A stretch of DNA of 3,133 nt. Origin: a plasmid. The notes under the pieces are model-generated. The model was not told where the DNA came from and did no database searches. It saw only the letters and a program-made list of their open reading frames with translations. This document shows positions 1 through 3,133 of this stretch, piece after piece; position 1 is the first letter of the stretch, and every line of letters starts with the position of its first letter. The position numbers and the translations under genes are program-made. The stretch lies in the NCBI RefSeq assembly GCF_057098645.1, contig NZ_JBXSPU010000007.1; one strand, 5' to 3'.

Positions 1-300
1 GATTGTATTGTTTATCGCATTACGCAGAGCAACCTCAATCATCTGGACAAGACAAAAAAAATCGCCAGACAGATCTTGGTAGGCAACGTATGCCCCAACC
101 TTTTCTTGATCAGTAGCGCACCCAAGAAATGTTTCATAGAAAGATAATCTTGGTACAGAAATTGAGCTAATTAAACTTGTTGTATCCATGAAAACTCACT
201 TATCTCTTTACTATGAATATTTTTCAGACTACCATTACAACATTCGAGGAGCAGGCGAACTACCGTTTTTCTGTGTACCTCTAGAGCGTAAAATATAACA

Positions 301-331
301 AAAAAGCCCACTACAGAGTGGGCTTTTTTGT
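301..331. terminator. Bidirectional intrinsic terminator (A-tract / GC hairpin / T-tract)
   Basis: Seen in sequence: A-run 301-306, 8-bp stem agcccact (306-313) pairing with agtgggct (318-325), 4-nt loop acag, T-run 325-330. A-tract upstream and T-tract downstream mean it can terminate on either strand; it would end a minus-strand transcript coming from mobC/cer. Confidence 0.65.
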
Positions 332-430
332 TATATTTATCTATATGAAACAACCAGTTATAGTTATTGTTTCATAATAAGAATTGAATACTCTTCACAA
401 TCCACAACATCAGAAAATACTTTGCTGCCA

Positions 431-458
431 ATTTACCATAACTCCCCTTACGCGCACC
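431..458 (-). other. XerC/XerD site-specific recombination core (cer/dif-like multimer resolution site)
   Basis: Reverse complement of 431..458 reads GGTGCGCGTAA-GGGGAG-TTATGGTAAAT, i.e. 11-bp XerC arm, 6-bp central region, 11-bp XerD arm. The XerD arm is identical to the one I recall for ColE1 cer, and the XerC arm is one mismatch from E. coli dif as I recall it. It sits in a roughly 290-bp non-coding gap of a ColE1-type plasmid. Confidence 0.75.
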
Positions 459-558
459 GCTAAAACGCGCTGAACGCGATTCTGCCGCAAACACCGCAAA
501 AAGAGATGTTTTACCCAGTGAAAACCGGAAAAATGCGTCAGGACCGTTTTCAGCTCAC

Positions 559-572
559 TGCATAGCTATGCA
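559..572. repeat. Perfect 14-bp palindrome TGCATAGCTATGCA; candidate accessory (ArgR-box-like) element of the cer-like site
   Basis: Perfect palindrome seen in sequence, centred about 100 bp on the XerC-arm side of the core. This is where cer-type sites carry accessory sequences bound by ArgR/PepA. Assignment as an ARG box is inference; the half-sites (TGCAT) differ from the TGAAT consensus. Confidence 0.35.
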
Positions 573-647
573 TGAAAGTGAATGGCGATCGGTTTGGGGC
601 CTTACGGCGTTCATACCGTCTGTTTTCGACAGTTTCTCTCCGGGAAG

Positions 648-971
648 CTAATCTGCCATAAGCCTGGATAACAGGGCCCGGTGATACTCCGTAATAGCGA
701 TCAGCACCTCCGCATACTCTCTGTCCCCGACACGCTTGCCGTCGATAAAGAGTTTTTTCTGTAACGCCCCCAGTCTCATAACTTCTTTCAGTACCCGATC
801 ATCAGTCAGTGAGTTAACTTTCTTACCGAGAGCTGCCGCCCGTAAAAAACCGGAAACGGTCTTGCCGCATTCAGCAGCCCTTTTTCTGATTTCCTGGTCT
901 TCTTCTGCCGTCAGACGAACAGGGCGACTGATAGCCCGCCTGCGCGTATTACTTCCACTTCGTTTTGTCAT
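648..971 (-). CDS. mobC: MobC-family relaxosome accessory protein (ribbon-helix-helix N-terminus), 107 aa
   Basis: From track ORF 648..1061 (-). Preferred start is the internal ATG at 969..971 (MTKRSGSNTRRR...), preceded by GGAG 9 nt upstream on the minus strand. The stretch RPVRLTAEEDQEIRKRAAECGKTVSGFLRAAALGKK, followed by DDRVLKEVMRLGALQKKL, fits the MobC pattern (RHH beta-strand plus two helices, then the conserved leucine-rich helix) as I recall it. The track start at 1061 would lie inside the oriT inverted repeat. Confidence 0.7.
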   Translation of the reverse strand: MTKRSGSNTRRRAISRPVRLTAEEDQEIRKRAAECGKTVSGFLRAAALGKKVNSLTDDRVLKEVMRLGALQKKLFIDGKRVGDREYAEVLIAITEYHRALLSRLMAD

Positions 972-990
972 AAAACATGGCTCCGTATCT

Positions 991-1075
991 GACATGGGGT
1001 GTCGGGGCGAAGCCCTGACCAGGGTAATTGTAATAGCGCGCATGTATGCGCGGTATAACAATTACACATCCTGTC
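991..1075 (+). other. Candidate origin of transfer (oriT/bom-like)
   Basis: Directly upstream of mobC and divergent from rom. 996..1023 (GGGTGTCGGGGCGAAGCCCTGACCAG) closely resembles the pBR322 bom-region string GGGTGTCGGGGCGCAGCCATGACCCAG as I recall it. It is followed by a 20-bp imperfect inverted repeat (1024..1065) and then ATCCTG (1068..1073), which resembles MOB_P-type nick cores. Confidence 0.55.
1024..1065. repeat. Imperfect inverted repeat in candidate oriT (arms 1024..1043 and 1046..1065, 17 of 20 positions complementary)
   Basis: Left arm gtaattgtaatagcgcgcat; reverse complement of right arm gtaattgttataccgcgcat; centre at 1044/1045. Seen directly in sequence. Confidence 0.85.
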
Positions 1076-1185
1076 CTGTCAGCAAGTTCGAATTACCGAC
1101 AAAGGCACGGCAGTTTTTTGGCAGTGACAGTATTGTCAGGCAGAAATGCCCGTCAAAGAGTCAGACGACAGAATACCGGCGGCAA

Positions 1186-1255: not shown

Positions 1256-1450
1256 ATGAACAAGCAGCAGCAAACCGCACTTAACATGGCAAAATTCATA
1301 AAAAGCCAGAGCCTGACGCTGCTCGAAAAACTGGACTCACTCGATGCTGATGCACAGGCCGCCATGTGTGAGAAACTGCACGAACTCGCAGAAGAACTCC
1401 AGAACAGCATACAGACACGCTTTGAATCGGAAAGTGGCACCGGGGAATAA
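1256..1450 (+). CDS. rom: Rom/Rop (RNA one modulator), 64 aa, ColE1 copy-number control protein
   Basis: Track ORF MNKQQQTALNMAKFIKSQSLTLLEKLDSLDADAQAAMCEKLHELAEELQNSIQTRFESESGTGE aligns along its length with pBR322 Rop as I recall it (MTKQEKTALNMARFIRSQTLTLLEKLNELDADEQADICESLHDHADELYRSCLARFGDDGENL). GGAG lies 11 nt upstream of the ATG; size and position next to a ColE1 origin are as expected. Confidence 0.93.
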   Translation: MNKQQQTALNMAKFIKSQSLTLLEKLDSLDADAQAAMCEKLHELAEELQNSIQTRFESESGTGE

Positions 1451-1684
1451 CAGTGTTCCTACACCAGACAGGATGCAGAACGATATACCGGTGCGTAAGG
1501 AGAAAATACCACATAAGGCGCTCTTCCGCTTCCTCGCTCACTAACTCGCTACGCTCGGTCGTTCGGCTGCGGCGAGCGGTATCAGCTCACTCAAAGACGG
1601 TAATGAGGTTATCCACAGAATCAGGGGATAACGCCAAAAGAAACATGTGAGCAAAAAACAAGAACCCGAAAAAGGCCGCGCCGG

Positions 1685-1700: not shown

Positions 1701-2056
1701 GCTCCGCCCCCCTGACGAGCATCACAAAAATCGACGCTCAAGTCAGAGGTGGCGAAACCCGACAGGACTATAAAGATACCAGGCGTTTCCCCCTGATGGC
1801 TCCCTCGTGCGCTCTCCTGTTCCTGCCTTTCGGTTTACCGGTGTCATTCCGCTGTTATGGCCGCGTTATCTCATTCCACGCCTGACACTCAGTTCCGGGT
1901 AGGCAGTTCGCTCCAAGCTGGACTGTATGCACGAACCCCCCGTTCAGTCCGACTACTGCGCCTTATCCGGTAACTATCGTCTTGAGTCCAACCCGGAAAG
2001 GCACGACTTATCGCCATTGGCAGCAGCCACTGGTAACTGATTTAGAGGAGTTAGTC

Positions 2057-2092: not shown

Positions 2093-2196
2093 ACAAGTTT
2101 TGGTGACTGCGCTCCTCTTAAGCCAGTTACCGAGGTTCAGAAACTTGCCGGTTGCTGAACCTTCGAAAAACCACCTTGCCGGGTGGTTTTTTCGTT
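2093..2196 (+). ncRNA. RNAI: RNA I antisense replication inhibitor
   Basis: ACAAGTTTTGGTGACTGCGCTCCTCTTAAGCCAGTTACC... parallels pBR322 RNA I (ACAGTATTTGGTATCTGCGCTCTGCTGAAGCCAGTTACC...). It ends in the hairpin plus U-tract at 2166..2192 and is fully complementary to the 5' part of RNA II. Confidence 0.8.
2166..2192 (+). terminator. RNA I intrinsic terminator
   Basis: aaaaa-CCACC-ttgccg-GGTGG-tttttt: GC stem with U-tract, homologous in position to the ColE1 RNA I terminator. Confidence 0.7.
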
Positions 2197-2569: not shown

Positions 2570-3133
2570 TCAACCGGCTACCTTAAGCTCCCTGCACTTA
2601 ATCCTCCCTATAATCCCCATAACATACTCTATCGTGCAGCGTTCATAAAAGCGCCTATCGTGCCCAATAAACTCAATAAGTTCCTTTTTCTCGTTAGAGA
2701 CGATACTCAAGGCATTCATTAAAAAATTGAACTCTTTCAACATATTATTTATGGCTTGACTATGCGACTTGCAGTGGTGTTTTTTCCAAATAGGCTCATG
2801 GTGAAAAAGTCGATTCCTAAACAAAAGAACTTTATGAAACTCGTCAAACAACGCTTTAACCTTCATATCCCCCCCACCCAAAGGATTCTTCGCATGAGGA
2901 AATGTTTTTGCCTTGTTCTCTGGAGTCCAGATGTAGCACGGCCTTTGCGTATCCCTATATGGGGCATCTAACATATAAACCCAAAAGCCAAAGGTTAGAC
3001 GGCAAATAACATCATCATCCGTATACCTTACGCCACACTCATCTAGCGCTTTTTGTTTCGCATTTAAAACAAGATCCTGAGATTTCTTTGTTTGAGGTAT
3101 AGAGTCGTACCAAGCAGGCCCATGATTAGCTTT
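2570..3133 (-). CDS. Abi_2 (AbiD/AbiF-like) abortive-infection family protein with HEPN-type Rx4H motif; C-terminal 187 aa, N-terminus beyond the window
   Basis: Minus-strand frame is open from the window edge (3133) to TGA at 2570..2572; the track ORF 2570..2974 is its internally initiated part. Motifs: LTFGFWVYML, and FRNRLFHHEPIW matching the Abi_2 hallmark R-N-x-x-x-H-H-x-x-(L/I)-W, which contains the HEPN Rx4-6H signature. AT-rich codon usage differs from the backbone. Family call is from motif memory. Confidence 0.65.
   Translation of the reverse strand, partial: KANHGPAWYDSIPQTKKSQDLVLNAKQKALDECGVRYTDDDVICRLTFGFWVYMLDAPYRDTQRPCYIWTPENKAKTFPHAKNPLGGGDMKVKALFDEFHKVLLFRNRLFHHEPIWKKHHCKSHSQAINNMLKEFNFLMNALSIVSNEKKELIEFIGHDRRFYERCTIEYVMGIIGRIKCRELKVAG

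Follow-up and report, generated by a model that had tools for sequence, protein, structure and literature searches.

How a small plasmid without genes for a relaxase, a coupling protein or a mating channel could be transferred between cells is the question raised by this locus. The window, meaning the whole stretch of DNA analysed (3,133 nt), represents an entire replicon, as shown by 12 PLSDB entries that have a length of exactly 3133 bp and match it at 99.9% identity or more; it is a complete circular ColE1-type E. coli plasmid of 3133 bp. When the whole circle was covered, no relaxase gene was present, as the initial annotation had proposed. No relaxase-sized open reading frame (ORF) occurs anywhere on the circularised 3133-bp sequence, where the largest ORF encodes 250 aa and matches PD-T4-5/Abi_2 rather than a relaxase. 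In ColE1, by comparison, an open frame of 537 codons starts at nt 2120. A tblastn search with IncI NikB against the circular sequence gave a best E of 0.14, revealing no nikB remnant, and the arrangement of I-complex loci, in which nikB always follows nikA and starts 10 nt after it, is not found in the window. The label 'relaxase MOBF' attached to these plasmids in PLSDB/MOB-suite is backed by no ORF. As the relaxase is absent from the plasmid, it must be borrowed in trans, and this dependence, also claimed earlier, stands with an oriT and an accessory gene present. The idea that a relaxase gene had been lost fared less well: a deletion endpoint marked by a nikB remnant was sought by tblastn of NikB and none was found, which makes loss indistinguishable from acquisition without nikB, and PMC11389934 interprets the module as an oriT region acquired from an R64-like plasmid.

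The region is very probably the NikA-oriT mobilisation module of the group of plasmids that includes pCERC7, NTP16, pU302S and pMUT1, in which the relaxase of an IncI-complex helper would be used. The elements of the module are the following, with a slash marking the predicted cut.

648..971, minus strand: nikA ('mobC' in the initial annotation, 'MobA' in PGAP), encoding a 107-aa ribbon-helix-helix relaxosome accessory protein
996..1076, plus strand: oriT of the R64/IncI type, upstream of nikA, alignable with the oriT that precedes nikA in IncI-gamma/K1 and IncI1/B/O plasmids
996..1022, plus strand: 27-nt block GGGGTGTCGGGGCGAAGCCCTGACCAG, identical in IncI-complex oriTs
1024-1043 and 1046-1065, plus strand: imperfect inverted repeat with 20-nt arms and 90% complementarity
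1065..1076, plus strand: nick region CACATCCTG/TCC, all 12 nt of which are the same in IncI-gamma/K1 and IncI1/B/O plasmids
Small plasmid's oriT: motif CATCCTGT

Identical records list the accessory gene as a CDS of 324 bp. Its product matches the Pfam NikA-like family PF21983 (4.4e-18), the NCBIfam MobA model NF041264 (113 bits; cutoff 80) and the R64 NikA structure PDB 2BA3 (2.4e-5), with an N-terminal ribbon-helix-helix domain. It is 53-55% identical to the NikA of IncI-complex conjugative plasmids, and about 53% identical to that of R64/IncI1. Of the NCBIfam models, the generic NF041264 captures the protein, and no IncI1-type NikA model is among the matches listed. A BLASTP comparison with ColE1 MbeC/MobC produced no alignment even at E<=100, and neither the Pfam MobC model nor the NCBIfam MobC-family models were matched. 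Thus, an accessory gene does lie at 648..971 on the minus strand, where it had been placed, while its assignment to mobC gives way to a NikA-like family.

The same protein accession, WP_000166966.1, is common to the record identical to the window, pCRP3, pMUT1, pST12 and pSA20082869.2; the product is matched at 99% identity or more by 329 PLSDB records, and the NikA of NTP16 differs from that of the window by one residue, a deletion. Among seven family members, 13 variable codons of nikA show synonymous changes only, as against three with amino-acid changes, and two pairs of genes differ by 9 and 11 synonymous changes and 0 non-synonymous ones. Strong purifying selection acts on the orphan nikA, and the earlier remark that the accessory gene is retained is borne out by a gene both real and selected. 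A divergent orphan nikA (P0032; 64% amino acid identity, pS 0.83, pN 0.21) was found on an unrelated 1.8-kb contig, beside an oriT core that is the same as that of the window. Another sequence (P0037), scored at 67%, proved to be a copy of the same gene carrying a frameshift. In searches of PLSDB and a 5.8-billion-protein set, every NikA match above 60% identity sits on a small relaxase-less contig.

The oriT is 74-89% identical over approximately 84 bp to those of about 1900 conjugative plasmids, of which the four inspected were all MOBP/MPF_I. The nick core CATCCTG/T at 1067-1075 is identical in NTP16, in the related locus L006 and in all relatives. The nick consensus of MOBP systems is YATCCTG/Y, which predicts a cut between G1073 and T1074; with the nick core on the plus strand, it is this strand of 996..1076 that is predicted to be cut and transferred. 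Within the inverted repeat, the arm ends vary in a compensatory way among relatives (T..A as against C..G), and 14 of 17 nick-proximal positions are identical to those of R64. The nick-proximal arm is presumed to be the NikA binding site, by analogy with the role assigned to it from R64 work (Furuya and Komano, 1997, as given in PMC6112013). A second, conserved copy of the nick core, GACAGGATG, occurs at 1467-1475 on the opposite strand. It was not adopted as a second oriT, as alignment with ColE1 suggests that it may be merely diverged ColE1 backbone.

When compared to the R64/IncI relaxosome (oriT-nikA-nikB, with a MOBP NikB and MPF_I), the nick core, the 27-nt block and the position of the repeat are the same, in both, nikA comes directly after oriT and points the same way, and the N-terminal ribbon-helix-helix domains match. 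The small plasmid differs in having no nikB or tra/trb genes, in its divergent NikA, and in the repeat, whose arms measure 17 nt in R64/IncI as opposed to 20 nt here, with a different inner repeat (PMC9282650).

The module is embedded in a ColE1-type replicon, the remaining features of which are listed below.

291..338, no strand assigned: bidirectional, intrinsic-type terminator-like hairpin made up of an A-run, a GC stem and a T-run
431..458, minus strand: XerC/XerD core of a cer-like multimer resolution site, GGTGCGCGTAA-GGGGAG-TTATGGTAAAT, with a 6-bp central region
459..647, minus strand: non-coding, putative accessory sequences for multimer resolution, conserved across seven plasmids
1256..1450, plus strand: rop, divergent from nikA; identical records annotate its product as a Rop family protein
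2095..2195, plus strand: RNAI (Rfam RF00106, 95.9 bits), at the other end of the shared backbone

RNAI was the sole match in an Rfam scan of the window, and the ori region is 84% identical to ColE1, consistent with an RNAI/RNAII-type replicon with rop. The backbone, in the order ori-rop-oriT-nikA-mrs, is common to sister plasmids from about 428/431 to 2197. The homology with sister plasmids ends exactly at the XerD arm of the Xer core, which separates the backbone from the variable cargo. In 200 shuffled sequences this core was never matched, and positions 431-480 are 79% identical to ColE1 cer. The sequences at 459..647 include an invariant palindrome, TGCATAGCTATGCA, at about 560-573, and by analogy may bind ArgR/PepA. 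No credible ORF was found at 339..647, downstream of the nikA stop, in agreement with the initial annotation of non-coding DNA with a cer-like site after the accessory gene. The terminator that it described likewise exists, as a hairpin with perfect 22-nt arms and flanking A/T runs, lying in the stretch that separates the Xer site from the cargo gene start. However, 300..430, together with this terminator, which had been placed in the mobilisation module, belongs to the cargo segment. The cargo consists here of the gene for the 250-aa PD-T4-5/Abi_2-like protein and a small ORF that contains the hairpin.

A mechanism can be proposed for the transfer of this plasmid, in which an IncI-complex conjugative plasmid (I1, I-gamma, B/O, K or Z) would share the cell with it. 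The NikA of the small plasmid would bind the nick-proximal arm of the 20-nt inverted repeat and may thereby recruit and position the relaxase of the helper, NikB, which would cut the conserved core on the plus strand. The strand would then be exported by the type IV secretion system of the helper, with nikA entering last. The adjacent Xer site would hold the high-copy plasmid monomeric, and it is here that the common backbone is joined to one cargo segment or another.

Based on the sequence and on published mating data (PMC8623487; PMC9282650), the relaxase is likely to come from an IncI-complex conjugative plasmid, in the form of NikB, and not from a ColE1 Mob+ plasmid. It has been reported that pU302S is mobilised by two IncI1 plasmids and not by IncX1 or IncX4 plasmids (PMC8623487), and that the IncP tra system does not mobilise it, while F does so only at about 1e-6 (PMC9282650). 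The relaxase-less NikA-oriT arrangement was described in 2017 (Moran and Hall, Plasmid 89:42-48), and according to the summary of that work in PMC9282650 the plasmids of the group share the same NikA, have no NikB, and include NTP16, which was mobilised by R64. The module of the window is closely related to these. NTP16 is 94.7% identical to positions 431-1396, and the module is 97-99% identical in pCRP3, pMUT1, pST12 and a 3208-bp Salmonella plasmid; the last has the same size as pU302S (AY333433), with no claim being made that the two are identical.

The same mechanism could operate with a main natural helper other than IncI1, either an undescribed I-complex-like lineage or several systems that include F at low efficiency, a reading which is possible although improbable. 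The closest NikA of a conjugative plasmid, of IncI1/B/O typing, is only 55% identical and the closest conjugative oriT reaches 89% over 82 nt; the low but measurable transfer of pU302S by F points the same way, and PMC9282650 raises the possibility explicitly. Moreover, the host RHBSTW-00180 of an identical plasmid carries an IncF plasmid and plasmids of 111 kb and 12.6 kb, and no I-complex plasmid, so a helper is not always co-resident. No co-resident I-complex helper was seen in the two host strains considered, a number too small for a statistic. Against this reading, no conjugative plasmid with a NikA above 55% identity was found in PLSDB (tblastn) or in a set of 5.8 billion proteins, and IncI1 helpers work experimentally. 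The moderate similarity of NikA and the repeat to those of R64 leaves room for a best natural helper other than IncI1 itself, a point also made in PMC9282650.

More tentatively, the orphan NikA and its co-diverged repeat could constitute a private adaptor that recruits the NikB proteins of several I-complex plasmids (I1, I-gamma, B/O, K, Z), or that of an undescribed helper, and escapes control by the NikA of the helper. Retention of the accessory gene would then be an adaptation for hijacking, not a leftover, and the nick-core copy at 1467-1475 might take part as well, perhaps as a further site of nicking or termination. This proposal is considered doubtful.

It is very unlikely that the module is a functionless relic, or that nikA owes its retention solely to a role as a transcriptional regulator or as a copy-number or stability factor, while the plasmid spreads vertically, by transformation or by transduction. 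In its favour, some hosts have no I-complex helper and frameshifted nikA copies exist (L005). In addition, deletion of nikA from pMUT1 lengthened segregational stability from 6.5 to 9 days (PMC10859263), which implies that nikA affects plasmid maintenance. Nevertheless, the selection on nikA and a near-invariant oriT extend over hundreds of plasmids with different cargo, and both NTP16 and pU302S have been mobilised by IncI1 helpers. The identical 3133-bp plasmid has also been found in E. coli and Salmonella from several continents, with humans, swine, chickens, a dog and river water as the sources, a range which suggests horizontal spread.

The initial annotation had assigned the module to the ColE1/MOB_P family with a ColE1-type helper, so that a mobC and bom of Mbe type, having lost their relaxase, would be nicked by MbeA/MobA of a co-resident ColE1 Mob+ plasmid and moved by any conjugative plasmid that mobilises ColE1. 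The module does share several traits with the ColE1 mbe/mob module (bom, MbeC/MobC and MbeA; MOBP5/HEN): the replicon is of ColE1 type, the module lies between rop and the cer-like site in the slot of the ColE1 mbe genes, 24 nt of the 27-nt block (997-1020) are 96% identical to part of the ColE1 bom region, and the accessory proteins MbeC and NikA both belong to the ribbon-helix-helix class (PMC9282650). This is nonetheless the least credible of the readings, given that the accessory proteins have no detectable sequence similarity, the oriT aligns with IncI/B/O, the ColE1 nick sequence (…TATACTGGCTTAAC…) is absent from the window even with up to three mismatches, the bom segment of approximately 170 bp is missing from the rop-ori junction and absent elsewhere in the window, and the helper range differs in published matings, where the IncP tra and IncX systems that left pU302S, with the same module, unmoved both mobilised a mobC-mobABD plasmid efficiently (PMC9282650; PMC8623487).

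The NikA-oriT module is already known and common, being present in 263 of 5426 complete E. coli genomes (approximately 5%), and the finding reported here is correct but ordinary, with nothing conceptually new. The window shares with the pCERC7/NTP16/pU302S/pMUT1/pCRP3 group the NikA WP_000166966.1, an R64-like oriT with a 20-nt repeat, the absence of nikB, the backbone order and cargo that abuts the Xer site. It differs in its cargo, which comprises resistance, toxin-antitoxin or HTH genes in the group and a PD-T4-5/Abi_2-like gene here, and from some relatives in the central region of the Xer site, 7-8 bp in these and 6 bp here. Related oriTs also occur on many tiny plasmids (PMC10123127; PMC11389934). 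Such hitchers (pOriT; pBuzz and other plasmids of 1.5-2.5 kb with I-complex-like oriTs) equally take the relaxase and type IV secretion system from a conjugative helper, but carry an oriT alone, whereas the NikA-oriT group keeps its own accessory protein. Relaxase-based typing mislabels this group, as 'MOBF' by PLSDB/MOB-suite, with 'MobA' as the PGAP name. In the present case the module carries a candidate anti-phage gene instead of a resistance gene. Plasmids with an oriT and no relaxase, with or without an accessory protein, explain the movement of many plasmids regarded as 'non-mobilisable', including small carriers of resistance and defence genes.

The window constitutes a complete small plasmid of 3133 bp, with twelve PLSDB records of exactly this length being 99.9-100% identical to it end to end. 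These records originate from E. coli and Salmonella of humans, swine, poultry and water, and further hosts, a dog isolate included, are found among complete E. coli genomes. By sequence, the replicon is of the ColE1 type, its origin region being 84% identical to that of ColE1. RefSeq annotates a 37-aa "replication initiation protein" within the RNAII/origin region (1927-2040, plus strand), which is probably an annotation artefact. All features listed in the initial annotation were recovered, namely the 107-codon gene, the repeat and nick-type motif upstream of it, the Xer core, the hairpin and the lack of a relaxase:

291-338: perfect hairpin, with A and T runs on its flanks
431-458: XerC/XerD core, GGTGCGCGTAA-GGGGAG-TTATGGTAAAT, in non-coding DNA downstream of nikA (matched in 0 of 200 shuffles)
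971 to 648, minus strand: nikA-like gene, 107 codons (324-bp CDS), from an ORF call and annotated as the same CDS in identical records
996-1022: 27-nt block identical to the oriT of IncI-type plasmids
1024-1043/1046-1065: 20-nt inverted repeat upstream of nikA
1065-1076: 12-nt nick region, GGACAGGATGTG (CACATCCTGTCC on the plus strand), identical to the oriT of IncI-type plasmids
1067-1075: nick-type motif upstream of nikA
1256-1450: rop, annotated in records identical to the window
2095-2195: RNAI (Rfam, 95.9 bits)

The absence of a relaxase has been established for the whole replicon, following the check that the initial annotation had proposed. No ORF exceeds 250 aa once the sequence is circularised; the one of that length (189 to 1, then 3133 to 2570, minus strand) is not a relaxase, its matches being to PD-T4-5, a PADLOC defence model (6.6e-30), and, at a weak level, to Abi_2. 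When the 899-aa NikB from an IncI plasmid was used as tblastn query against the window, the best E was 0.14.

The 107-aa protein had been attributed to the ColE1 mobC family, an identity that is ruled out by its matches to NikA-like proteins and by a series of negative results: no BLASTP alignment to ColE1 MbeC was obtained even at E<=100, and neither Pfam nor NCBIfam gave a MobC-family match. The protein matches the Pfam NikA-like family PF21983 (4.4e-18), NCBIfam NF041264 "MobA" (113 bits; cutoff 80) and 2BA3, the structure of the ribbon-helix-helix domain at the N terminus of R64 NikA. Its tblastn identity is 53% with NikA of IncI1/I-gamma-typed plasmids and 55% with that of one IncI1/B/O-typed plasmid, in all of which nikB, a 2.7-kb relaxase gene, starts 10 nt after nikA.

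The DNA upstream of nikA likewise aligns with the oriT of IncI1/I-gamma- and IncI1/B/O-typed plasmids, the inverted repeat being placed alike, with its outer bases conserved and its inner part diverged. An 84-nt oriT stretch is matched at 74-89% identity by approximately 1900 conjugative plasmids, and the four inspected were all typed as MOBP/MPF_I. The ColE1 nick sequence is absent from the window even with three mismatches allowed, and the bom segment (~170 bp) is missing from the rop-ori junction. The only part in common with the ColE1 bom region (1498-1521 in ColE1, 997-1020 in the window) is a 24-nt block, GGGTGTCGGGGCGAAGCCCTGAC, 96% identical, which may have led to the ColE1 assignment; despite this block, the nick sequences and accessory proteins of ColE1 and of the R64-type oriT are unrelated. 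A second exact nick core, GACAGGATG, lies in opposite orientation at 1467-1475 (plus strand), ~390 bp from oriT; shuffles would lead one to expect 0.04 copies per window. It is located where ColE1 has bom, has no adjoining repeat, and is conserved as GACAGGATGC(A/C)GAACG with variable flanks in six of seven relatives; it may represent diverged ColE1 backbone.

Mobilisation by a relaxase supplied in trans from an IncI-complex helper is the best-supported reading. The initial annotation thus stands as regards a relaxase in trans, while its predicted helper, a ColE1 Mob+ plasmid, is not supported. Anatomy, homology and lack of a relaxase were observed in the window itself, and published work on near-identical modules has demonstrated IncI1-dependent transfer. 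As related in PMC9282650, Moran and Hall (2017) describe a group whose NikA is identical between members and 53% identical to R64 NikA, whose oriT, with 20-bp repeats, is ~78% identical to that of R64, and for which no NikB homologue is reported; NTP16 is reported to have been mobilised by R64. pU302S was not mobilised by IncP tra and only at ~1e-6 by F (PMC9282650), and pCERC7 has been listed as a pOriT that acquired the R64 oriT region (PMC11389934). In the proposed process, the plasmid's NikA would bind the nick-proximal arm of the inverted repeat and recruit the helper's NikB, which would cut the conserved CATCCTG/T core on the plus strand (at 1073/1074, as predicted from the MOBP consensus), and the cut strand would be exported by the helper's MPF_I system. 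The helper's NikA might also bind this arm, since 14 of 17 positions agree between it and its IncI counterpart. Among conjugative plasmids, NikA identity reached 55% at most in the searches, so the most suitable helper in nature may be something other than classical IncI1. Host strains looked at were RHBSTW-00180 (CP056787-CP056790), MLI108K1 (NZ_CP116990-2) and ECCTRSRTH03 (NZ_CP041117/8). In RHBSTW-00180, a host of an identical plasmid, IncF and plasmids of 111 kb and 12.6 kb are present, but no plasmid of the I complex. The 3133-bp plasmid is accompanied by a mobilisable plasmid of 12,602 bp, matched by length alone, in one UK freshwater isolate and one Malian stool isolate, and two distinct NikA-oriT plasmids, of 3133 and 3005 bp, share one swine strain.

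Retention of the accessory gene, which had been remarked upon initially, proved to be real. Among seven family members, 13 variable nikA codons are synonymous-only and three are amino-acid-changing, each of the latter confined to a single plasmid; in two pairs, all of the 9 and 11 changes, respectively, are synonymous, although about three quarters of sites are non-synonymous. A divergent orphan nikA (896-1219) follows an R64-like oriT with the same core (~790-870) on L006, an unrelated 1789-bp contig (Logan SRR10527121) with iteron-like repeats at 1-230, which, unlike the window, is not ColE1-like and has no relaxase after nikA or elsewhere on its 1.8 kb. The two genes share 64% amino-acid identity, with pN at 0.21 and pS at 0.83 (synonymous sites saturated). 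These figures and the synonymous-only excess indicate that orphan nikA is maintained by selection. On another contig, L005, the standard nikA is present as a frameshifted copy adjoining an IS. Deletion of nikA from pMUT1 has been reported to lengthen segregational stability (PMC10859263), which indicates that nikA affects plasmid maintenance.

Sister plasmids have only 428/431 to 2197 in common with the window, and in the seven-plasmid alignment divergence starts right after the XerD arm, as would fit an exchange of cargo through Xer recombination. Their Xer sites have a central region of 6, 7 or 8 bp and either GGTGCGCGTAA or GGTGCGTACAA as XerC arm; the Xer cores of pMUT1 and pCRP3 match the ColE1 cer core exactly. 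The 250-aa gene, spanning the window ends (2570..3133 and 1..189, minus strand), is the sole sizeable gene of the plasmid and contains an RNRLFHH motif. Given its PD-T4-5 and Abi_2 matches, the cargo is a candidate phage-defence gene and not a resistance gene. About 30 nt past its stop codon, a convergent element at 2464-2539 comprises a perfect inverted repeat (26-nt arms, 24-nt loop) followed by TTTT, with a promoter-like site at 2300-2328. It falls within an annotated 47-49-aa "hypothetical protein" ORF (2396/2402-2545) and no Rfam family was found for it; its appearance suggests a small RNA or a terminator rather than coding sequence.

The oriT-nikA arrangement is already known and common. 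The segment (640-1090) occurs at >=95% identity in ~380 PLSDB records, nearly all plasmids among the matches listed being 1.7-8.3 kb (one is 28.7 kb), and in 263 of 5426 complete E. coli genomes. MOB-suite typing in PLSDB gives "relaxase MOBF" for records of the window and its relatives (L001, L002, L012-L017, L024), none of which has a relaxase-sized ORF, and PGAP labels the NikA-like protein "MobA". Members include pMUT1 (E. coli Nissle 1917), pCRP3 (Citrobacter rodentium), pST12 and NTP16, several with an identical NikA (WP_000166966.1). Mobility statistics based on relaxases will misclassify this group of small NikA-oriT plasmids.
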